Below are positions 8,329-59,267 of a stretch of DNA of 64,000 nucleotides, piece by piece. The translations under genes were made by a program, and so were the position numbers. Below the pieces are notes generated by a model that saw only the letters and a list, made by a program, of their open reading frames with translations, was not told where the DNA came from and ran no database searches. Origin of the DNA: a virus; IMG/VR virus record IMGVR_UViG_3300019124_000003, positions 1 to 64,000 of that record, one strand, 5' to 3'. Each line of letters opens with the position of its first letter. Position 1 is the stretch's first letter.

Positions 8329-8585
8329 GTCTCTATAGGTGTCTCTCTACGGTCCATTCTCTACCGGTAGGTCTCTCTGTAGAGGCTATATCGTTTACCG
8401 GGTCCTCAGATGCCCGAAGCCGTCTCTCTATCTCTTATACGTAGTATCTATGTTCTATATCGAGAGACGGATTTGGGTCTCTCCGGAATATGTATTCGGG
8501 CTTGCCAGGTAAGCGATTGCCGCTTCCGCTCTCATGAGCGTGTCTCTCTTGAGCCCATGCTATCCGCTGAATTTTCGTCTCAAGA
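8329..8585. repeat. iteron-like array of GTCTCTCT(A/G) repeats
   Basis: Copies start at 8329, 8341, 8371, 8422, 8477, 8542, 8577, plus an inverted copy at 8462-8468, in a ~700-bp gene-free region. Confidence 0.8.
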
Positions 8586-15989: not shown

Positions 15990-16309
15990 TGGGTATCTAC
16001 TGGAAGCGGACCCGCGAGGTCTATCCGGACGCGGGCTATGACGACACCTATTGGACGGCCTTCGATCCGGCCGTGCGGTTTCTGCGCTTTCACATGGAGA
16101 CGGGTGACGAGACGATCGGCAACGTCCACCAGGTCAAGGGCGGACCGGAGGACGGGCTCTGGCAATGGTCGATGACGGTTTCTCTGCCAGGCCCTCGCTA
16201 CGGAGTGACGAACGGCAGGGAGGCGGACGCGAAGGCGGCGGGCCGGAAGGTGATCGAGTGCTATCGCCACTACCTTTCGACCCGCCCAGGCACCTACAGG
16301 CAGCGCTAG
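15989..16309 (+). CDS. hypothetical protein (106 aa)
   Basis: TGATG overlap with recombinase stop. Confidence 0.6.
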   Translation: MGIYWKRTREVYPDAGYDDTYWTAFDPAVRFLRFHMETGDETIGNVHQVKGGPEDGLWQWSMTVSLPGPRYGVTNGREADAKAAGRKVIECYRHYLSTRPGTYRQR

Positions 16310-19752: not shown

Positions 19753-19914
19753 TCAGATGCCGAACAGTCCCAAAACGTCGGAAGCCTCGGACCGGGCTGG
19801 GTTCCGAGGCTTCCTGGTGTAGGCCTTCTTTGACCTGACGATGCGCTGGCGATAGAGCGGTTTCGCCAGTTCGCGGGCGGCATGATTCGGCTTCTTGCTA
19901 AGCTTCTTCCGCAT
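19753..19914 (-). CDS. small basic protein, ArfA-like (alternative ribosome-rescue factor A pattern)
   Basis: MRKKLSKKPNHAARELAKPLYRQRIVRSKKAYTRKPRN...; PL(F/Y)RQR(V/I)...KK...Y.RK resembles E. coli ArfA [34 protein letters not shown]; sigma-70-like promoter. Confidence 0.45.
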   Translation of the reverse strand: MRKKLSKKPNHAARELAKPLYRQRIVRSKKAYTRKPRNPARSEASDVLGLFGI

Positions 19915-19938
19915 CCTTATCTCCTATAAATTTGTTCT

Positions 19939-19966
19939 TGCATACAACTTGTGTGCAACTTGTAAA
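19939..19966 (-). promoter_or_regulatory. sigma-70-like promoter
   Basis: TTTACA-N16-TATGCA upstream of the ArfA-like gene; direct repeat ACAAGTTG x2 across it. Confidence 0.5.
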
Positions 19967-20135
19967 TACTTAGCATAAGTTACACGGTAACGCTACGGGA
20001 TTTAGCGAAAAGGCGACTTCGCGCAAAGGCGAATTAGCGTGGTGAAAACGCCGCAGCCTTTGAAAACGTTGGATAAATCGGAATGGTTAAGCTGTGAACT
20101 GTTTTTTTGTTCACAGTTTGTTCTCGTTCACCATA

Positions 20136-20165
20136 TTGACGAGAGCCTCGGCAACCCTCATTAAA
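20136..20165 (+). promoter_or_regulatory. sigma-70-like promoter
   Basis: TTGACG-N18-ATTAAA upstream of the EF-hand gene. Confidence 0.4.
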
Positions 20166-20234
20166 AGTGGCGCGGCTGGTTGGGGCGAATACAGATAAGA
20201 TAGCCCCTAGTCTGCTTTCCAAAAGGTATAAGCC

Positions 20235-20699
20235 ATGACAGTCACTATTAGGGGCAGCTTCCAGACACACAAAGAAGGTCTCGCTGCTGCAATGTTGATC
20301 GCCGCAAGAAATTACGTTGCGGCAAAGGGGCTGGGTTATTTCGATGCCTCCAAGCTTTCCGAATACCCACGTCGCCTCGAAGACCATGCCGGCGAGATCC
20401 TTGCGCTCGGCACCAATGCCTTCGATGACGAAGAGGAAAGCGAGGAGCGTTCGAGAACGCGCTCCATGAACACTGCCGTCGAGGTGGTCCGGCAACATGG
20501 GCGCCGCCTGGCGCTGATTATTTTCGTGCTCGCCGCATTGCCGGCCTATTCCATCCTCGACTGCGATGCCGACGGCATGATCAGTCTTGCCGAGATCGAG
20601 TGCGTCTTCGACGGCTCGCATTCGCATGGCGCAAGCGTCGTCGCGGCGACGGATAGCGCGCGCACGAAGTCCGCTGCCATGCTCGGGGAGAACCAATAG
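20235..20699 (+). CDS. membrane protein with canonical EF-hand loop
   Basis: DCDADGMISLAE fits the 12-residue EF-hand loop; TM LALIIFVLAALPAYSIL; own promoter and terminator; opposite strand to neighbours. Confidence 0.7.
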   Translation: MTVTIRGSFQTHKEGLAAAMLIAARNYVAAKGLGYFDASKLSEYPRRLEDHAGEILALGTNAFDDEEESEERSRTRSMNTAVEVVRQHGRRLALIIFVLAALPAYSILDCDADGMISLAEIECVFDGSHSHGASVVAATDSARTKSAAMLGENQ

Positions 20700-20752
20700 A
20701 TCTTCGACGCCGATTTGGCTGAAACCAACTGATCCGCTGCGGCAGCAGCGAC

Positions 20753-20783
20753 ACCCCGGGTCCAAGACCCGGGGTTCTTGCTT
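20753..20783 (+). terminator. intrinsic terminator after the EF-hand gene
   Basis: ACCCCGGG-TCCAAGA-CCCGGGGT then TCTTGCTT; abuts the 3' end of tRNA-Cys on the other strand. Confidence 0.65.
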
Positions 20784-20787
20784 GAAT

Positions 20788-20862
20788 TGGAGTTGCGGGA
20801 GGGACTTGAACCCTCATAGACGGATTTGCAGTCCGCCGCCTCACCCTTCGGTCCACCGCAAC
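20788..20862 (-). tRNA. tRNA-Cys (GCA)
   Basis: Manual fold: 7-bp acceptor GTTGCGG/CCGCAAC, anticodon loop CTGCAAA, T-arm GAGGG-TTCAAGT-CCCTC, discriminator U73, CCA encoded; D-stem weak. Confidence 0.85.
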
Positions 20863-21080
20863 GAAATTTCGGCCCGCTGAATCGGGATGCCAGGCAAGCC
20901 GGGGATCGGAGCCAGACGGGCCCGGATGGTTTCGGTTCATCCTACTGCCACCCATGTTCGGGTCGATGCGGGCCGGATTGGCTACCGGCACCCGGTTTTG
21001 CGACCCAACCCGTCGGCTGGGGCTCAGGGCGGTCCCGACTCTAGCGAGCTCCCGGAGGATCTACCTCTGCCGCATCGAAA

Positions 21081-21156
21081 TGGTTGCTCCGGCTGGATTT
21101 GAACCAGCGCTCCCGGATTATGAGTCCGGCGCTCTACCAGGCTGAGCTACGGAGCC
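21081..21156 (-). tRNA. tRNA with CAT anticodon (Met, Ile2 or initiator unresolved)
   Basis: Manual fold: D-arm GCTC-AGCCTGGTA-GAGC, anticodon arm CCGGA-CTCATAA-TCCGG, T-arm GCTGG-TTCAAAT-CCAGC, CCA encoded; G1-A72 mismatch. Confidence 0.8.
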
Positions 21157-21256
21157 GAAGAGTGCAGGTCGGACGCTACCCCGACCCTGTGGACGATAGG
21201 CGTGGTATCGACGCCTCGTTTTACGTCATCGGCATTGCTGCCGACCCTGGAAGGCG

Positions 21257-21329
21257 TGGAGCCGGCCGGAATCGAACCGGGCATCCTTCGCAGACCGTTC
21301 TGGACGCTCTACCCTTGAGCTACGGCCCC
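21257..21329 (-). tRNA. tRNA-Ala-like element with non-canonical anticodon arm
   Basis: Acceptor GGGGCCG/CGGCTCC with G3:U70, canonical D-arm GCTC-AAGGGTA-GAGC and T-loop TTCGATT. The anticodon region TCCAGAACGGTCTGCGA cannot form a 5-bp stem with a 7-nt loop and has no U33. Confidence 0.5.
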
Positions 21330-21843
21330 AAAACTCGTTGGGGCTTCCCCGTCCCAGGTTCTCGTTCCACTGATTAGCGTGTTCGCTCCCACGCCGCTGC
21401 ACTCTCCGTAAAACTCGGTGATGGGGAGGGACCAGTTGGATCCCACTGGGTTGGTGGAAGGCCCCTCCCCTATTCGGTGCTCCGATTATCGTCGTGGCCC
21501 TCGGAGCAACGGGCGGTCGCATCACGCTCGATCCAGGCGTCCGCCGTTCACGCCAGCGAGACCACACGCAAGTTTAGGTCATTGCAGACCCGCTTCCGCG
21601 AGAGATGGCACGGAACCCTGGCTCAGACGCGCGAGGCGTCCCCAAGTAGGCGGTGCGTGCCGAGATCAAAGATTTGATGTCGGTGTTGCGGCAGGTCTCC
21701 CGGATCAGTGTTTAGCGATGCGGGCGACGGTATAAGGCCGCTATGGCGAACGTGTCAAGTCAGAACTGACTTAGCTAACGTCGGAGCATGGTTCCCTCCC
21801 CTGTTGTCGCTGCGCGTGTCGCTCATGCGCTGTCGATGATTTG

Positions 21844-21867
21844 ACTATAGCAGCGCATGAGCGGCTG
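21844..21867 (-). promoter_or_regulatory. class-2 phage promoter of the tRNA region
   Basis: CAGCCG-N10-GCTATAGT; no ORF follows for ~500 nt before the tRNA-like element. Confidence 0.5.
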
Positions 21868-21910
21868 TGTGTCGGGATTTAGCGAAGCAGCGAAATAGCC
21901 GCTTCGCCCT

Positions 21911-22186
21911 TTAGCGCCACTGAGCCTTGAGCTCCTGCACGCCCTTCGTGACCTCGGCCTGGTCGTAGCGGGGATGGCGCTTCCAGTAAGCCATCTTCTT
22001 CTCGCAGATCGCCATCTCCTTGCGCGCCTGGGCCCGCTCGCGCCCGTCCTTCGAGGCCTTGGCGATGAAGTCGAGGTAGAGGTAGTTCGCGTAGTGCTTG
22101 AGATAGTGCTTGACCGCGTTCCAGCGCTCATACGGGACGGTTGGAGCTCCGCCCTCGTGTCGTTCTTCGCTATAGATGATCGCCAT
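21911..22186 (-). CDS. hypothetical protein (91 aa)
   Basis: Start MAIIYSE behind class-1 promoter and leader CAGCAACACGGAGG. Confidence 0.65.
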   Translation of the reverse strand: MAIIYSEERHEGGAPTVPYERWNAVKHYLKHYANYLYLDFIAKASKDGRERAQARKEMAICEKKMAYWKRHPRYDQAEVTKGVQELKAQWR

Positions 22187-22219
22187 ATGCGAACCTCCGT
22201 GTTGCTGAACGATCACATG

Positions 22220-22251
22220 ATCGCGCAGCAGAGCACGGAAGTCGGGTGGGA
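22220..22251 (-). promoter_or_regulatory. class-1 phage promoter
   Basis: TCCCACCCGA-N14-TGCGCGAT upstream of 21911..22186. Confidence 0.5.
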
Positions 22252-22274
22252 AATTAGCGGTTTAGCGAAATCGC

Positions 22275-22499
22275 CTATTCGCTCTCGTCCTCGACAGTCT
22301 CCTTCAGCAGTTGCCTGAGCAGAAGGTCCTGGTTGTAGGAGTTGAGCTGGCGCGTCACCAGCACCGTCACGTAGACCAGGTGCTTCGGATCCTTGATCTC
22401 GGCGAAGGCTCTCCGGACGTTGAGCCCCTCCCCTATCCGCACCCAGCCGGCAATCCGGTCGGCCTTGTCAGCCAGAACTCTCAGCTCCCCTTCGGTCAT
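22275..22499 (-). CDS. hypothetical protein (74 aa)
   Basis: RBS GGGGACGGAG; full ORF. Confidence 0.65.
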   Translation of the reverse strand: MTEGELRVLADKADRIAGWVRIGEGLNVRRAFAEIKDPKHLVYVTVLVTRQLNSYNQDLLLRQLLKETVEDESE

Positions 22500-22556
22500 C
22501 TCCGTCCCCTTTTAGCGCTTTCGCGAATTCGTCATCGGTCAGGAGGTGGATATACA

Positions 22557-22739
22557 TCAGGCCACCCATTTTCCGCCACCGCAGCTCCATGAGCGGGGCT
22601 GCTTCACGCCGATGATCTGGTCGTCCGGGAAGATGGCCCGATGCTTCTCCCGGGCTTCTTTGGGCGAATTAGCGAAATGGTCGGCCGCGAAGCTGCGATT
22701 CCAGCCGGGCCGCTTCCAGAACACGAGATAGTGGTTCAT
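22557..22739 (-). CDS. hypothetical protein (60 aa)
   Basis: Start MNHYLVF, ATGA coupling. Confidence 0.55.
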   Translation of the reverse strand: MNHYLVFWKRPGWNRSFAADHFANSPKEAREKHRAIFPDDQIIGVKQPRSWSCGGGKWVA

Positions 22740-22912
22740 CGGGCCGCCTCCCTGGCGACAATCACGCCGTCCTTCAGCAGCACCACCTGCCGGATGCCGC
22801 CTTTGGCGATCCGCGCGCACTCGCGGGCGTAGCGGGCCCGGGCGGCGTCGCCGTCCTCGACCGGAGCGCGCCAGGTCGGCGCGCCGCGGTAATCCACGAT
22901 CACCTGATACAT
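22736..22912 (-). CDS. hypothetical protein (58 aa)
   Basis: MYQVIVDYRGAPTWRAPVED...; strong RBS CGCGAAAGGAGGAA; below ORF-track cut-off. Confidence 0.5.
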   Translation of the reverse strand: MYQVIVDYRGAPTWRAPVEDGDAARARYARECARIAKGGIRQVVLLKDGVIVAREAAR

Positions 22913-22958
22913 CGCTGATTCCTCCTTTCGCGAATGGGCGATTTAGCGAAACGAAGGC

Positions 22959-23417
22959 TCACCAGGAGCCCTCTTCCGCAAGCTGCGCGGGATCCGGCCG
23001 CTTGACCTTCAGCCGGAGCCGAACCAGGTCCACGTCGTCATTGACGCCGCGATTTAGCGATTTCGCGAGTTCGCGCGGCCGCGCCGGCGGTGCGTCGTAG
23101 ACGACCAGTCCGCCGTTGGCCTCGATCTCCTCGAGGAGCTGGCGCCAGTATTTGCGGAGCATCGGTCGCGCTTTCGCTAATTGGCGATCGGTCATGTGAT
23201 TGCGCCACCTCGGCAGCGCCTTCGCGATCGAGGTCAGGAACGGCGCGTCGTTGGCGTTGAAGCCGCGGCCGTTGCGGACCCGGGTGGTCTCGTCGGACTG
23301 CTCGTCTTCGGTCTGCCGGGCGAACAGGGTCAGGATCGCTTTGGCGACCGCCTGATCGTTGGTGTCGAGGAGCTGGATGATCGCGTCTTTGTCCCAGACT
23401 TTCTGCTGCGTGGTCAT
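22959..23417 (-). CDS. hypothetical protein (152 aa)
   Basis: Start MTTQQKV behind class-1 promoter at 23455-23486. Confidence 0.7.
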   Translation of the reverse strand: MTTQQKVWDKDAIIQLLDTNDQAVAKAILTLFARQTEDEQSDETTRVRNGRGFNANDAPFLTSIAKALPRWRNHMTDRQLAKARPMLRKYWRQLLEEIEANGGLVVYDAPPARPRELAKSLNRGVNDDVDLVRLRLKVKRPDPAQLAEEGSW

Positions 23418-23454
23418 CGTCGTGTCCTGCAATAGCGTTGCTGACGAGACGACG

Positions 23455-23486
23455 ATCTCAAATTCCTGACGGACAGTCGGGTGGGA
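23455..23486 (-). promoter_or_regulatory. class-1 phage promoter
   Basis: TCCCACCCGA-N14-TTTGAGAT upstream of 22959..23417. Confidence 0.5.
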
Positions 23487-23827
23487 TTTCGCGAATGCGC
23501 GAATGGGAGATTTAGCGATAGCGCGGAATCGCTTTAGAGCGTCGCTGAGCGACGGCAGCGCGTGTCGAGTGTCGCTCTAGTGACGAGAGCGCCCCGTCGC
23601 TCTGTGAGCGCTTAGAAGCGCTGCAAAGCTATAACCAGTTCAACGCTACTTGAACGATTGCGCGATCTTGCGCGTTGTGCGCTGGACGCGGCTCCGGCCG
23701 ATGGCTAGGAAGCCGCGTCTAACTGGAAAGCAGACAAACTTGGCGGCTCCGGTCTCGGCTGGAGTCGCCCTTTTAACGCCTGGGATTCGAAAAGGTTTGG
23801 TCGGGGGATCGACCGCGAATCCGCTAT

Positions 23828-23992
23828 TTAGCGAAACCAGCTCATCACCGTGCCGCCCGCGGCCACAAAGCCCAAGAGCACCAGGAATCCGAAGGCGGCC
23901 ACGCCGAGCATTTGGACGATCTCCGGCAGCTCCCGTTCGATGAAGAACTGGATGGAGATCCGGAGGTTTCTCAGATGCCAGCGGATGCCCAT
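23828..23992 (-). CDS. small membrane protein (54 aa)
   Basis: RBS AAAGGAGGAA; MGIRWHLRNL...GVAAFGFLVLLGFVAAGG; below ORF-track cut-off. Confidence 0.45.
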   Translation of the reverse strand: MGIRWHLRNLRISIQFFIERELPEIVQMLGVAAFGFLVLLGFVAAGGTVMSWFR

Positions 23993-24013
23993 TTTCGCTA
24001 ATTCCTCCTTTCG

Positions 24014-24280
24014 TTAAATCGTTATCGGAAACCAGACGCGGACGTGGCTGGAGCCGGGATGGTCCCAGTCCCAGGTCACGTTCTCGGTGATGCTGAAGGC
24101 TTTGAGCCAGTGCTCCATCGCCGGCCGGTCCGACGCAGGGATCACGATTCTTGCCTTCACATTCGGCTCGGCGCCGTCAAGCACGACGACCACATCGAAG
24201 ACGGCGAGATCCGTCGTCTTCTTGAGGTGGTCGATCAGCAGCTTGAGGGGAGGGACGTAGGATTTCGCGGTTTCGCTCAT
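24014..24280 (-). CDS. hypothetical protein (88 aa)
   Basis: ATG 3 nt after rtcB stop; RBS AAGGGGA. Confidence 0.65.
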   Translation of the reverse strand: MSETAKSYVPPLKLLIDHLKKTTDLAVFDVVVVLDGAEPNVKARIVIPASDRPAMEHWLKAFSITENVTWDWDHPGSSHVRVWFPITI

Positions 24281-24283
24281 TCG

Positions 24284-25657
24284 CTAATTCCCCTTCTTCT
24301 TGCGCCAGGGCGCGTCCTTCTCCCAGTCGCCGGCCATGATCGAGCCATAGGGCAGGATCTCGTCGGTGATCTGTGCCAGACCATACTTGGCGATCTGGAA
24401 CCGCACCGCGTCGGCGTTCTTGTAGGCGGACGGCAGCTCGGAGTGGTCCGGGATACCGCAGAACGAGCGAATGTCGAGGCCCTGCGCCTGGAGCGCCGCT
24501 AATTCGTCCTTTAGCGATTCCGCGTTCTCGCGAAGGTGCTGCGAGCGGGAGGAGTTGCGGCCGGCGCCGTGCGGCGCGAAGCCGAGCGCCTCCTTCCTGT
24601 TCTTGTGCCGCGCGATCAGGATCGGCTGGCTCATGTTGAGCGGGATCAGGGTCCGGCCGTCATCGTCCGCGGAGAAGCCGTCCCACGAGGGCGTGGCGCC
24701 CTTGCCGTGATAGAACAGCCCGTCGGACTTCTGGAAAACGAAATTATGTTCGTTCCAGAACCGATCGACGATCTTGTTGCCGATCATCATCGCGGCGAGG
24801 TCATGGATCGCGAAATGCGAGCGCTTGGTCCAGTCGCGGACGATCTGAAGGGCCTTCCAGTATTCCTGCCCGTCGGCCGAATCCGCCTTGAGCCAGGCAT
24901 TGTGCGCCGGGACCTTCGGGGCGTGGATCGCCGTGTGCCGCTTCGCATCGGCCATGCCGCGCTTGTAGAGCTGCGCGCCCAAGCCCCTCGAGCCGTGATG
25001 GGTCACGAGGGCGAGCTGTCCCGTGCTCTTGAGGCGGCCCACATAGGCGAAGTGGTTGCCGTCGCCCTGGGAGGCGAAGTGCCCGAGCGCATAGTTCTCC
25101 AGGCCCGCTAAATAGCGATTTCCCGAAATCGCGCTCATGATGGCCCGCGGCGGCTCGATCATCTTGTCGCGCCCGCCCGGCCCGAAATGCGTCACCGACT
25201 GCACCGCGTCGAGCAGCTTCTTGGGCTCGTCCTGGCGCATGAACACCGAGATCGCCACCGAGCAGCAGATGTCGGACGAGTGGAAGCCCGGATGGATCGC
25301 GTCTTCGCAGGCGACCGCGCCGCCGACCGGAATCGTGCCGAGCTGGCTGCCGGCAGGGCAGGCGTCGGGCATCACCGCGCCGGCCTTGATCGTCGGCACC
25401 CGCATCAGAGCGTCCATGTGCTTGACGACCGCTTCCAGGTTCTCGCGCTCCTGGTCCGTCTCCGGATCAAGGAAGACGGAGTAGGGGAGGGCGTTCGTCC
25501 GCAGCAAGGTTTCGACCGGCTGCATCGTCTGGAGATGGGCGAAGATTGCGTCATCGTCCGCACCCTCCGCGCGCATACGGTTGGCCGTCAGGAGCGCGTC
25601 CTTGAACCACCTGCCGGGCTTGAAGCCCCATTCTTGTAGTGTGAGCCCCGTGATCAT
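24284..25657 (-). CDS. rtcB: RtcB-family RNA 3'-phosphate ligase
   Basis: 457 aa with GDGNHFAYVG, HHGSRGLG and C-terminal PHGAGR blocks typical of RtcB. Confidence 0.9.
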   Translation of the reverse strand: MITGLTLQEWGFKPGRWFKDALLTANRMRAEGADDDAIFAHLQTMQPVETLLRTNALPYSVFLDPETDQERENLEAVVKHMDALMRVPTIKAGAVMPDACPAGSQLGTIPVGGAVACEDAIHPGFHSSDICCSVAISVFMRQDEPKKLLDAVQSVTHFGPGGRDKMIEPPRAIMSAISGNRYLAGLENYALGHFASQGDGNHFAYVGRLKSTGQLALVTHHGSRGLGAQLYKRGMADAKRHTAIHAPKVPAHNAWLKADSADGQEYWKALQIVRDWTKRSHFAIHDLAAMMIGNKIVDRFWNEHNFVFQKSDGLFYHGKGATPSWDGFSADDDGRTLIPLNMSQPILIARHKNRKEALGFAPHGAGRNSSRSQHLRENAESLKDELAALQAQGLDIRSFCGIPDHSELPSAYKNADAVRFQIAKYGLAQITDEILPYGSIMAGDWEKDAPWRKKKGN

Positions 25658-55913: not shown

Positions 55914-58900
55914 CTATTCGGCCAGCGATGCTGCCGTTGCGAAAACCTCGTTGAGCGGGATCTGCTTGTCCGGATCATGATAGACCTCGCCCGGCGAGAA
56001 CCCGACGATCAGGTTGGCGTCGAGCTTCTCCGAGTAGATCACCTTGCCGGCAGCATCCGACGCCTTGCCCTTGAAGTCGGGGATGAAGTGGCGCACGGTC
56101 GCCGAGCCCAGCATGACGATCACCGGCGGCTTCAGGATCTCGATCTCGCGGTGCAGATAGGGCGCGTAGGTCTTGATCTCTTCCGGCGAGACCTGCTTGC
56201 CCTCCTTCGGCCGCTTGATCAGCGCCGTCCAGTAGGCGTCCTTCGTCGAGAGCCCCGCCTCGTGCAGAGCCTCGCAGGTCGCCTGCCAACTGAACCCGTC
56301 GCCCATCGTCATCTGACCCTTGCGCTCCTCGGGTGCCGACGGACAGTCGAAGATCACCATGAAGCGCGCATCGCGGCCCAACGCCGGCTTTACGGGCGTT
56401 CCGTCCTCGGCGTGGGATGCGCGGTATTCGGACACGAGCGCGCCGAGCTTCGCCTTCGCGAACTTGTCGCGCTCCATGTCGCGATGAACCGGAACGATGT
56501 CCGTGATCAGGCCCGGGATCAGCTCGCGCTGGTCACGGATCCGGTCAGGGTGCTTCGCCGGCAGCGAGCCAGGCTCGATCGCGGCAAAGGCCCCGACCTT
56601 CTCCAGCTTCGTGACGTGGCCGATGTTGCAGCGCCGCTTCTCGACCCTGGCGATGAAGTCCGCCTTCGACTTGAACGGGCCGTCCTCGCGCGCAGTCAGG
56701 ATCGCCTTCACCGTGTTCTCGCCCACGCCCTTGATGCGCGAGAGCGGCATCGCGAGCTTGGTGTCGGTGACGATCTCGAAGCGGTCGGTGGACAGGTTCA
56801 CGTCCGGCAGCATCAGCTCGACGCCGAAGCGCTCCGCGTCCTTCAGGATCGCCGGCAGCTTGTCCTGATCCATCAGCGTCAAGGCGGCCGCGAAGAACTC
56901 GACCGGGTAATAGGTCTTGAGCCACATCGACTGGTAGGAGATCAGGGTGTATTCGACCGAGTGCGACTTGTTGAAGCCGTAGCCGGCGAAGCCCTCGATC
57001 TTGTCGAAGAGTTCACCCGCCCACTCCTCGTCGCAGCCGATGGTCTTGACGCAGCCTTCGACGAACTTGGAGCGCTCCTTCTTCATCTCCTCGGGCAGCT
57101 TCTTGCCCATGATCTTGCGCAGCTTGTCGGCGTCGGGCGCGGAATAGCCCGCGATCACGCGCGACACCTGCATGACCTGTTCCTGATACACCATAACGCC
57201 GAACGTCGGCGCCAGGATCGGCTCCATCAGCGGGTGGTCGTATTCGACGGACTCGATGCCCTGCTTGCGGCGCCAGTAGCTATCCATCATGCCGGATTCC
57301 ATCGGACCCGGACGATAGAGCGCGGTCGCGGCCGTGATGTCGTCGAAGGTGATCGTGCCGTCCTTGCCGAGCTCCTTGAGCAGGCGACGCATACCGCCCG
57401 ACTCGAACTGGAAGATGCCGACGGTCAGCGCCTTCGCGAAGTTCGCCAGCACCTTCTCGTCGTCGAGCGGGATCCGCATCAGATCGACCTTCTTCGAATG
57501 CCGGCGACGGATATAGTCGAGCGTCAGCTTGATCAGGTCGAGGGTTTCGAGGCCCAGAATATCCATCTTGACCAGGCCCATATCCTCGACGATGCGCTTG
57601 TCCCAGTTGACCGTCGCGCCGTCCTTCCGGCGCTCGATCACGCCGCGCTCGACCAGATCGCAGCCGCCCACGACGATGCCGGCCGCGTGACGCCCGAGCG
57701 TCTTCGTGACGCCCTCGACCTTGAGGCTCGTCTCCCAGATCGGCCCGAACTTGTCGCGGAACTCGCCGATCTCCGGCACCATGTCGGCCGCCTCTTTAAG
57801 CGGAATGTGCGCGCCGTGCTTCTTCGGCATCAGCTTGGTGCAGGCATAGAGCGACTCCGGCAGGCCGAAGGCCTTCGCCACGTCGCGGATTGCGGACGCA
57901 GGGCCCAACGCAATGAAGTTGGACACGCCCGCGACGCGCTTCTCGCCGTATTTCGAGGTCAGGTAGTCGATGATCTCGCCGCGCCGTGTTGACATGAAAT
58001 CGAGATCGGCATCGGGAAGGTCAATACGATCCGGGTTGATGAACCGTTCGAAGAGCAGACCGAAGCGAATAGGATCGCAATCAGTGATTCCCATAAGATA
58101 CGCAACAAGAGAACCGCCCACGGAGCCGCGGCCAGGACCCACCAGAATGCCATTCGATTTCGCAAAGCGAACAACGTCCTGAACCAGGAGGAAGTAGCCG
58201 GAGAAGTTGAGCTTCTTGAGGACTTCGAGTTCATAGGCGAGCCTGGGCTTGTAGACATCGCGCAGCTCCTCTGCCGACGGCTTGTGACCGAACACGCTGG
58301 ACCCGAAGCGATGGCTCCAGCCCTTCCTGCATTCCTCGACCACGGTGGCGAACTCGTCCGCGGCCATCTTAGGCAGGCTCACCGGCGCCTTCGACCACTC
58401 GTAGGCAACCTTGTTCACGAAGTCGGCCGTCGCCACGAGGCCCTGCTTGAACCAGGCGCCGGCGTCGCTGACCCCGAAGCGATCGATCAGGCGCCGGGCC
58501 GCGCTCGTCGCATGGGCGACGAGATCCTTCGTGCCCATCGGGTGCAGATCATGGAAGGCTGGCTGATAGTGCCAAAGATCCTCCAGGCGAACGTTGCGCG
58601 TCACCGCCGTCATGATCTCGGCGGCCGCCTGGTCGCCTTCCGCGTAGAGGGTAGGGCGGGCAACCAGCGTGAGCAGGCCGAACTTCGTTGCAGCGGCAAT
58701 CGCGCGCTTGTTCACCACGTCGAAATAGGGCGTGTCGATCGGCGTGAGCTGGGCGTAGATGCCGGTCGCGCCGAGCTGTTCGAGCCAGCCCTCGATGATG
58801 GTGTCGGCCTTCGGATGCGCGAGCACCGAGAACTGGTCGCCCGTCGTGATCACGAGGTCGTCGGAGCTCAGCGTCGAGAGGGCGTCGTGCAGATCCTCGA

Positions 58901-59267
58901 AACCGAGCTTCGGCACGTTGTAGAAGCGCTCGTCCGAGTTCGCCTTCGTGAGCAGCTTGAAGACTTCCTTCAGGCCCTTCTCCGAACGCACATAGACGGT
59001 CGCGAAATATTCCGGGGGAGCCTTCTTGTCCTCCTTCGTCTTGCGCCAGGACGGGTCGTCCACCAGGCGCAGACGGCAGCCGATGATCGGCTTGATGCCG
59101 GCCTTCTTCGCCTTGTTGGTGAAGTCGATCATGCCCGTCACGGACATGGTGTCGGTGAGGGCGACCGCCGTCGCCCCCACGGACTTTGCGCCCTCGACGA
59201 GGCGCTCGACCGTCATGATCGATTCACCGATAGAGAAGTTCGACCGAGCGGCCAACATCGAGTGCAT
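55914..59267 (-). CDS. dnaE: DNA polymerase III alpha subunit (DnaE-type, PHP domain)
   Basis: 1117 aa; N-terminal PHP region, FSGYFLLVQDVVRFAKSNGILVGPGRGS, C-family polymerase core. Confidence 0.95.
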   Translation of the reverse strand: MHSMLAARSNFSIGESIMTVERLVEGAKSVGATAVALTDTMSVTGMIDFTNKAKKAGIKPIIGCRLRLVDDPSWRKTKEDKKAPPEYFATVYVRSEKGLKEVFKLLTKANSDERFYNVPKLGFEDLHDALSTLSSDDLVITTGDQFSVLAHPKADTIIEGWLEQLGATGIYAQLTPIDTPYFDVVNKRAIAAATKFGLLTLVARPTLYAEGDQAAAEIMTAVTRNVRLEDLWHYQPAFHDLHPMGTKDLVAHATSAARRLIDRFGVSDAGAWFKQGLVATADFVNKVAYEWSKAPVSLPKMAADEFATVVEECRKGWSHRFGSSVFGHKPSAEELRDVYKPRLAYELEVLKKLNFSGYFLLVQDVVRFAKSNGILVGPGRGSVGGSLVAYLMGITDCDPIRFGLLFERFINPDRIDLPDADLDFMSTRRGEIIDYLTSKYGEKRVAGVSNFIALGPASAIRDVAKAFGLPESLYACTKLMPKKHGAHIPLKEAADMVPEIGEFRDKFGPIWETSLKVEGVTKTLGRHAAGIVVGGCDLVERGVIERRKDGATVNWDKRIVEDMGLVKMDILGLETLDLIKLTLDYIRRRHSKKVDLMRIPLDDEKVLANFAKALTVGIFQFESGGMRRLLKELGKDGTITFDDITAATALYRPGPMESGMMDSYWRRKQGIESVEYDHPLMEPILAPTFGVMVYQEQVMQVSRVIAGYSAPDADKLRKIMGKKLPEEMKKERSKFVEGCVKTIGCDEEWAGELFDKIEGFAGYGFNKSHSVEYTLISYQSMWLKTYYPVEFFAAALTLMDQDKLPAILKDAERFGVELMLPDVNLSTDRFEIVTDTKLAMPLSRIKGVGENTVKAILTAREDGPFKSKADFIARVEKRRCNIGHVTKLEKVGAFAAIEPGSLPAKHPDRIRDQRELIPGLITDIVPVHRDMERDKFAKAKLGALVSEYRASHAEDGTPVKPALGRDARFMVIFDCPSAPEERKGQMTMGDGFSWQATCEALHEAGLSTKDAYWTALIKRPKEGKQVSPEEIKTYAPYLHREIEILKPPVIVMLGSATVRHFIPDFKGKASDAAGKVIYSEKLDANLIVGFSPGEVYHDPDKQIPLNEVFATAASLAE

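Follow-up and report, generated by a model that had tools for sequence, protein, structure and literature searches.

This analysis concerns a window of 64,000 nucleotides of DNA from a soil phage (positions 1-64,000 of IMGVR_UViG_3300019124_000003, part of a 114-kb ENA metagenome contig) and, within it, a 73-nt element that resembles a transfer RNA (tRNA) gene. The element lies in a cassette with two other tRNAs and has the identity elements of an alanine tRNA (tRNA-Ala), without an anticodon loop that could decode. It is more than a chance likeness to a tRNA gene. The reading favored here, at a probability of about one half, is that a tRNA-Ala gene was inactivated by destruction of its anticodon arm and persists as a relic that would be unable to decode. 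The coordinates of the element and of its surroundings are collected in Table 1.

The RNA of the element can be written GGGGCCG-UA-GCUC-AAGGGUA-GAGC-G-UCCAGAACGGUCUGCGA-AGGAU-GCC(C)GG-UUCGAUU-CCGGC-CGGCUCC-A. When the whole window was compared with all Rfam families, the tRNA model (RF00005; gathering cutoff 29 bits) aligned with the element from end to end at 44.4 bits (E = 3.5e-6), skipping 13 nt of the arm. ARAGORN made no tRNA call at 21257-21329, though it called both neighboring tRNAs. The universal nucleotides U8, A14, G18, G19, A21, U54, U55, C56, and A58 are all present. An earlier note on this DNA, made from the sequence alone, had described a tRNA-Ala-like acceptor stem with G3:U70 and A73, a D-arm, the T-loop UUCGAUU, and the lack of a usable anticodon loop. 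All of these were borne out on the minus strand: 7/7 acceptor and 4/4 D-stem pairs form, and neither ARAGORN nor Rfam offers a canonical fold.

The affiliation with tRNA-Ala is evident throughout the body of the element. Outside U33, the anticodon, and the inserted nucleotide, it matches every position conserved at ≥90% among 24 distinct tRNA-Ala genes. The framework GAGC-G-UC...GA-AGG...CGGUUCGAUUCCG...CUCCA is common to it and phage tRNA-Ala(UGC) genes, and a search with the framework pattern (AGAGCGUC, arm, GAAGG, CGGUUCGAUUCCG) found 26 phage tRNAs, of which 19 are tRNA-Ala. Judged by its sequence, the element is a tRNA-Ala gene in everything except the arm. The concentration of identity in comparisons with individual tRNA-Ala genes is not robust, with p values of 1.6e-5 to 0.013 for some comparators and 0.18-0.25 for others. 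A covariation argument from the Levitt pair (A15:U48) was dropped, as the canonical tRNA-Ala at locus L164 has A15 together with C48.

In the canonical register, the 17-nt arm forms three of five pairs, with C.C and A.G mismatches. Y32, U33, and R37 are missing (A stands at position 33 and U at position 37), there is no GC at positions 35-36, and at least four substitutions separate the arm from any canonical one, having a stem of 5 bp, U33, and R37. The earlier statement that these 17 nt cannot form a 5-bp stem with a 7-nt loop, and that U33 is missing, is therefore correct. The alternative fold that it offered, CAGA-ACGG-UCUG, is indeed the best fold of the arm and extends to 6 bp with a bulged C (−2.7 kcal/mol), but it does not rise above chance. 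This energy was equaled or bettered by 24-26% of 13-mers when the 13 interior bases were shuffled, or were replaced in the same UC...GA frame by random 13-mers at 62% GC or by 13-mers from the window. Genuine anticodon arms gave −4.2 to −6.6 kcal/mol, and the short arms of the bacterial b7a-type RNAs described below gave −7.8 to −8.8 kcal/mol. The replacement hairpin is thus at chance level and does not look selected.

The element departs from a functional tRNA-Ala elsewhere too. An extra nucleotide at the junction of variable loop and T-stem either makes a C bulge out of the T-stem or leaves C49.C65 mismatched and the variable loop 6 nt long, in place of the regular 5-bp T-stem and 4-5-nt variable loop of functional tRNA-Ala. 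CCA is not encoded (CGC follows A73); tRNA-Met and tRNA-Cys of the cassette both encode it, as read by comparing ARAGORN ends with Rfam ends. Without constraints, the minimum free energy (MFE) structure (−30.5 kcal/mol, 68% of the ensemble) departs from the cloverleaf by pairing the scrambled arm with the 3′ strand of the D-arm; folds compatible with a cloverleaf are at best ∼4 kcal/mol less favorable. Of the five tRNAs folded by this method, the other four (tRNA-Met, tRNA-Cys, and two tRNA-Ala of canonical type) all have a cloverleaf as their MFE.

A relic of this kind would most likely have arisen through a single clustered mutational event that destroyed the anticodon arm. A candidate mechanism is a template switch that copied the neighboring D-arm strand in inverted orientation (a quasi-palindrome). 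Before or after this event, the gene would have acquired its minor lesions, the gain of 1 nt at the variable-loop/T-stem junction and the loss of the encoded CCA. It would probably still be cotranscribed with tRNA-Met and tRNA-Cys from a promoter near 21730-21758, and no selected function is needed to explain it. RNase P needs only the acceptor/T module, and alanyl-tRNA synthetase (AlaRS) recognizes G3:U70 without the anticodon, charging even minihelices with this pair. A transcript with this module intact could therefore still be cut by RNase P at its 5′ end and, though only after 3′ trimming and CCA addition, be alanylated.

Other origins were tried and rejected. The arm is not a copy of other window sequence (no match at ≤2 mismatches), and no local inversion yields a canonical arm. 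Its likeness to a shortened tRNA-Arg(ACG) arm (CCAGA-CUACGAA-UCUGG, locus L006) is a resemblance by eye and was treated as coincidence. The element is not a tRNA fragment left by an integration event (attP/attL-type), being full length and having acceptor strands that match at its 5′ and 3′ ends; no integrase was found among the nearby open reading frames (ORFs) scanned, and no flanking direct repeats bound the cassette.

Several observations weigh against the relic. Of the constrained positions, 4/12 in the arm carry visible lesions, against 1/41 among the universal nucleotides and the stems of acceptor, D-arm, and T-arm (Fisher p = 0.007), so that uniform neutral decay does not fit and either very recent inactivation or a selected body is indicated. 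All 26 framework-sharing phage tRNAs have a canonical anticodon arm and an ARAGORN call, as do more than 120 bacterial framework tRNAs, bar two truncated at contig ends; an intact body with a scrambled arm is therefore rare and not routine. A one-step template switch is made plausible by 7/9 Watson-Crick matches between arm positions 32-40 (ACGGUCUGC) and D-arm strand 18-26 (GUAGAGCGU) (P = 0.006, shuffles), but this complementarity is imperfect and comes from a post hoc test, devised after the fold was seen. Finally, lytic phage genomes tend to shed useless DNA, although the cassette interval has long spacers anyway. A decaying tRNA was among the roles listed in the earlier note and is the best supported of them (chance-level hairpin, extra T-stem nucleotide, no CCA, no counterpart in relatives), but not in the form of uniform decay.

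The absence of the element from other genomes bears on every reading. The window encodes rIIA, rIIB, a DnaE-type polymerase, SbcC, an exonuclease, and RtcB, and its source is therefore taken to be a large lytic phage. Its predicted place is in the Bradyrhizobium/Rhizobium phage group, as an orphan without a close relative; among named phages, those nearest to it are Bradyrhizobium phage BDU-MI-1 (RtcB 68%) and some Rhizobium phages, 115-122 kb in size. No RtcB of >77% identity was found in IMG/VR, JGI metagenomes, or 5.8 billion proteins. Among the RtcB relatives in the protein set, P0004 and P0010 proved to be chromosomal stand-alone genes and P0015 to belong to a different phage; none of their contigs has the element. 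Megablast of positions 20000-23000 against 50,697 phage records gave no match, and distant blastn gave generic tRNA-Met matches only. Neither the exact pattern of the arm nor the cores of tRNA-Met and tRNA-Cys matched anything in IMG/VR. No syntenic loci were found through the upstream 101-aa gene, and three identical-protein look-ups for natural variants showed only the source contig. Searches of the phage database, of 80 metagenomic RtcB loci, and of 28 viral loci revealed no sequence homolog of the element, and no near or exact counterpart of it or its companion tRNAs appeared elsewhere in these searches.

Four features lie in the same order in the window and in the closest relative, locus L004 (RtcB 77% identical): the upstream gene, a non-coding block of 63 nt, a convergent ORF, and an ArfA-like ORF. 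In L004, a terminator-like hairpin (seen by eye) follows directly after the block and stands ∼225 nt ahead of the convergent ORF; the window has ∼780 nt with all three tRNAs in this place. The earlier note had looked to relatives for a normal tRNA-Ala here as the mark of a pseudogene; the syntenic interval of L004 carries no tRNA, and none of the three of the cassette, which is therefore a lineage-specific accessory. Proteins of the window and L004 are ∼50-77% identical, yet the non-coding block is 78% identical and may represent a conserved small RNA upstream of the tRNA cassette.

A second reading, tentative and ranked below the first, is that a non-decoding tRNA-shaped RNA is maintained, with selection on its acceptor/T/D body and an arm that drifts freely. 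The confinement of most lesions to the arm (p = 0.007), with 7/7 acceptor and 4/4 D-stem pairs, T-loop, and universal nucleotides intact, would be expected of such an RNA. It might act as a processing "punctuation mark," where cuts by RNase P and RNase Z would separate the upstream non-coding RNA from tRNA-Met and tRNA-Cys. Alternatively or in addition, it might be CCA-tailed and charged by AlaRS (G3:U70/A73) as a decoy or titrator that anticodon nucleases cannot cut. The place of the element, first in the cassette and directly downstream of the non-coding block conserved in L004, also speaks for a maintained RNA. Precedents exist in short-loop tRNA-like RNAs conserved in Bradyrhizobium RtcB cassettes and in an anticodon-less tRNA-like element in both 16S-23S spacers of a Bacteroidia genome (L232). 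However, the element is unique to one contig, with no support from conservation, and its arm hairpin is at chance level. The extra T-stem nucleotide, the missing CCA, and the non-cloverleaf MFE would reduce its fitness as a tRNA mimic. It is on account of the chance-level hairpin, the two extra defects, and the lack of conservation that this reading is placed below the relic. In addition, a charged non-decoding Ala-tRNA would call for a partner pathway, of which there is no sign nearby. The decoy, AlaRS-titrator, and primer roles, on which the sequence is neutral, would gain no more than a modest plausibility from the clustering of lesions in the arm.

A more elaborate form of this proposal is doubtful. 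An anticodon-less alanine-acceptor RNA would be kept purposely: excised by RNase P and RNase Z, CCA-tailed, charged by host AlaRS through G3:U70 or else bound as a tRNA-shaped decoy, immune to anticodon nucleases, and allied with the phage RtcB against host tRNA cleavage. If true, it would be an independently arisen phage counterpart of the b7a-tRNA and YrlA mimics described below.

The Bacteroidia element was found in a metagenome-assembled genome (JAOLBX010000002.1; L232 743-810 and 7131-7198, minus strand) as the third tRNA-shaped element after tRNA-Ile and tRNA-Ala in both 16S-23S spacers. Its anticodon arm is reduced to UC-CCAUUAGGG-GA, and it scores 45.7 bits with the Rfam tRNA model and has no ARAGORN call. 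It may be an rRNA-processing signal.

An association with RtcB was also considered. The earlier note had placed the element next to RtcB; the ligase gene is genuine and on the same strand, but the element lies 2.95 kb downstream of it, with seven small genes between. The lead itself proved productive for bacteria. In bacterial loci whose RtcB is 67-70% identical to that of the phage, a tRNA-like RNA with an "anticodon" loop of 4-6 nt is followed by an abutting second tRNA, an SPFH/Band-7 gene, and RtcB. This order was seen in 7/8 loci with enough upstream DNA and also in Bradyrhizobium genomes. The RNA pair lies ∼150-220 nt upstream of the SPFH gene, which directly precedes RtcB, and ∼1.7-2.5 kb from RtcB. 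The first member is tRNA-Phe-like, with a mismatched acceptor stem; the second, 0-2 nt after it, has a conserved body and an anticodon that varies by locus (GUG, AUG, UUU, GUU, or ACC). The tandem pair loci are L048 8274-8419, L040 1300-1444, L052 4235-4379, L038 6502-6645, L042 8290-8432, L046 7611-7754, L148 4278-4422 (minus strand), L184 3041-3184, and L039 about 8395-8470, where the first RNA is lost and the second kept. Burroughs and Aravind, in 2016, reportedly predicted a tRNA associated with band 7 (b7a-tRNA), and the bacterial pair is probably this system. The b7a-tRNA is described as lying next to Band-7/SPFH, linked to RtcB, and not experimentally validated (bioRxiv 10.1101/312249); no mention of a hypervariable anticodon was found in that description. 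In more distant loci (RtcB 52-55%), YrlA (RF02553) stands directly upstream of RtcB (L074 9202-9317, L095 9316-9433, and L067 9498-9628). The b7a-type RNAs and YrlA beside RtcB indicate that RtcB-linked tRNA mimics with dead anticodon loops are real. A tRNA-based model also matched tRNA-like segments overlapping YrlA in these three loci; the YrlA-RtcB association is already known.

On the strength of these cassettes, the element might be thought a cofactor or partner RNA of the phage RtcB, but this is unlikely. A covariance model built from b7a-type RNAs only (R2; seven bacterial members, with the window left out) gave it 38.9 bits, against 55-56 for held-out members, 50-62 for many ordinary tRNAs (up to 62.5), and 48.8 for tRNA-Met of the window. 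An earlier model (R1) is unusable as evidence of membership because the window sequence was in its training set. The shared GUC...GAAGG flanks are generic, being common to ordinary tRNA-Ala, tRNA-Thr, and tRNA-Phe. Because of this and the rank of the element below ordinary tRNAs, b7a homology was dropped, and membership in the family is largely refuted. The bacterial RNAs show the reverse pattern, a poor acceptor stem with a strong arm. No SPFH homolog was found in the 64-kb window by tblastn with the L048 SPFH protein and B1VFA prohibitin (best E 0.4-0.9), ∼50 kb of the contig lying outside it, and no phage-type RtcB locus examined has a b7a-type RNA. Nor is the element YrlA, for which there was no match at the gathering score in the window or at E ≤ 1 in 19800-24400.

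Likewise, the proposed role akin to transfer-messenger RNA (tmRNA) was rejected: no tmRNA family matched even at E ≤ 1 in 19800-24400, the window has no tmRNA call from ARAGORN, and the D-arm of the element is complete. At L020 15210-15525, on a 152-kb viral contig that also encodes RtcB, a permuted tmRNA (tag ANDNFACEARLAA) was observed. Between it and a tRNA-Met lies a 79-nt tRNA-like sequence (16214-16292) with good acceptor and T arms, no recognizable D-arm, and no ARAGORN call. In L006, two tRNA-Arg genes (UCG and ACG; 1464-1653) lie immediately downstream of RtcB.

That an assembly or sequence artifact hides a normal tRNA-Ala is very improbable. The only copy inspected is a single metagenome-assembled contig (megahit k141; ERZ27286118 k141_285988), but thirteen consecutive altered bases with the exact length kept are atypical of assembly or base-calling errors, and k = 141 makes a chimeric join within a 73-nt gene unlikely. 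Moreover, identical flanking proteins occur on three contigs, a second assembly of 114,497 bp exists, and no inversion restores a canonical arm.

Least probable of all is an odd tRNA that still decodes, either with an AACGGUC loop presenting CGG (an Ala-charged reader of CCG) or as a short-loop frameshifter or suppressor; unusual tRNAs do occur in related phages (an 8-nt or 6-nt anticodon loop in BDU-MI-1, CUA anticodons in L006 and L037), but here the canonical register has the C.C and A.G mismatches, A33, and U37, a canonical arm fold costs +3.8 to +5.1 kcal/mol (isolated arm), and ARAGORN, which accepts loops of 6-9 nt, rejects the element. The BDU-MI-1 gene, annotated tRNA-Glu-TTC (L001 6641-6717; KY940711.1 114085-114161), has the irregular arm CCGGC-CUUCUCGG-GCCGG, which can be read as having a loop of 8 nt or, with the stem at 6 bp, one of 6 nt; the ARAGORN call for it is "tRNA-???" with a 2-base anticodon. 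L007 and L047, which are related to L001, have a normal tRNA-Glu(CUC). The tRNA with a CUA anticodon (amber-suppressor type; ARAGORN "Pyl") is present at L006 7984-8059 and L037 17960-18035, both on the minus strand, in a relative of the window phage.

Table 1. Features of the element and its surroundings (window coordinates)
Feature	Coordinates	Strand	Basis
tRNA-Ala-type gene with non-functional anticodon arm, 73 nt	21257..21329	-	Rfam tRNA model; ≥90% tRNA-Ala positions matched outside anticodon loop
Acceptor stem 5′ strand GGGGCCG, element positions 1-7	21323..21329	-	7/7 pairs with CGGCUCC, including G3:U70
D-arm GCUC-AAGGGUA-GAGC, positions 10-24	21306..21320	-	4/4 bp stem; A14, G18, G19, A21 present
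Scrambled anticodon arm UCCAGAACGGUCUGCGA, positions 26-42	21288..21304	-	3/5 canonical pairs
Variable loop AGGAU and T-arm GCC(C)GG-UUCGAUU-CCGGC	21265..21287	-	1 extra nt; Rfam aligns 1-nt T-stem insertion
Acceptor 3′ strand CGGCUCC and A73, then CGC not CCA	21257..21264	-	Pairing and sequence read
Gene-free interval holding three-tRNA cassette, 1.2 kb	20700..21910	-	No gene called on source contig
tRNA-Met (CAU), canonical, CCA encoded, G1.A72 mismatch	21081..21156	-	ARAGORN; Rfam 65 bits, non-canonical first pair flagged
tRNA-Cys (GCA), canonical, U73, CCA encoded	20788..20862	-	ARAGORN; Rfam 50.2 bits
GC-rich hairpin after tRNA-Cys	20753..20775	.	Terminator scan, inverted repeat I13; T-tail on + strand only
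Conserved non-coding block upstream of element	21477..21539	-	63 nt, 78% identity to L004 14356-14420
Possible promoter: TTGACA, 17-18 nt spacer, TTATAC/TATACC	21729..21758	-	By eye
ArfA-like ORF, 53 aa	19753..19914	-	Motif PLYRQRIVRSKK..Y.RK; conserved in L004 (58% identity over 31 aa)
RtcB RNA ligase	24284..25657	-	Pfam PF01139 6.3e-26, PHROG_1075 3e-99

The surroundings of the element were described in the earlier note as a promoter-driven operon with an ArfA-like gene nearby. The two canonical tRNAs on the same strand were confirmed with ARAGORN as tRNA-Met(CAU) and tRNA-Cys(GCA). The possible promoter has a perfect TTGACA (21758-21753, by eye) but a poor −10 hexamer, and the promoter scan made no call. 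The ArfA assignment proved weak (13.9 bits with the Pfam model against a cutoff of 25.5, E = 0.037; no NCBIfam match); a phage-encoded ribosome-rescue factor would be notable if real. Of the three G:C pairs that mark the anticodon stem of initiators, the tRNA-Met has only two, and initiator, elongator, and tRNA-Ile2 (lysidine type) are candidates for its identity. A candidate terminator or operator is a perfect inverted repeat of 13 nt (CGCUCAUGCGCUG / CAGCGCAUGAGCG, 21820-21832 / 21851-21863, 18-nt spacer), which lies within the gene-free interval, with the 101-aa gene just upstream of it and the possible promoter downstream. Elsewhere in the window, the DnaE-type polymerase (1117 aa; 55914-59267, minus strand) has PHP, pol III alpha, finger, and HhH domains and, at residues 999-1092, a C-terminal domain of the uracil-DNA glycosylase superfamily (Pfam UDG, E = 2.3e-8).

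What the element signifies depends on the reading. As a relic, it would be mainly an issue for annotation, covariance models labeling a non-decoding gene "tRNA" at 44 bits, and a clean case of a full-length tRNA gene killed by a cluster of changes in a single arm. With a maintained body, the element would be a phage tRNA mimic with alanine identity and no anticodon, tying phage tRNA cassettes to the RtcB-associated tRNA-like RNAs, for which, to our knowledge, a function has never been shown experimentally. The bacterial tandem pairs may outweigh the element itself in value; the variation of the anticodon from locus to locus in the Bradyrhizobium SPFH-RtcB tRNA invites the idea of a bait or sensor for anticodon nucleases.

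Among known systems, the b7a-tRNAs resemble the element in being tRNA-shaped, with a defective anticodon loop, in genomes with an RtcB of the same clade (67-70% identity). They differ in their tRNA-Phe-like body (L038 still has UUGAAGG), mismatched acceptor, strong short arm, and abutting partner tRNA, none of which the element has; furthermore, the element is of a different sequence family, SPFH has no homolog in the 64-kb window, and seven genes lie between the element and RtcB. YrlA is likewise an RtcB-linked tRNA mimic without a decoding anticodon, but it is ∼115 nt long, with another topology and a Ro-binding helix, whereas the element lacks that helix and no Ro/Rsr gene was found. The tRNA-like domain of tmRNA likewise combines alanine identity (G3:U70) with independence from an anticodon; the element, in contrast, keeps a complete D-arm and has an arm where an anticodon arm belongs, without an mRNA-like domain or tag ORF. 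The L232 spacer element is similarly tRNA-shaped, with a short arm hairpin, and lies beside genuine tRNAs in a multi-RNA transcript; it is present in both rRNA operon copies, while the element in the window is a singleton without evidence of maintenance.

Prokaryotic genomes commonly contain non-canonical remnants of tRNA genes (van der Gulik et al., 2023; PMC9897764). Like them, the element matches the covariance model and fails structure criteria, and the 5-7-5 rule is broken in it. The published remnants are mostly integration fragments or CRISPR spacers, whereas the element is full length, has a fully complementary acceptor, and resides in a lytic-phage cassette. Compared with canonical tRNA-Ala (RF00005; phage UGC genes L125, L114, and L164), it retains the GGGG.../...CUCC acceptor, G3:U70, A73, the GCUC...GAGC D-arm, G26, U27-C28/G42-A43, the AGG start of the variable loop, and the UUCGAUU T-loop, with ∼70-75% body identity to the nearest phage tRNA-Ala(UGC) examples. 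It differs in lacking a 5-bp anticodon stem, U33, an xGC anticodon, R37, and an encoded CCA, and in having 1 extra nt. The element is thus a new case of a kind that is already known, a gene that derives from a tRNA and sits in a phage tRNA cluster but does not decode.

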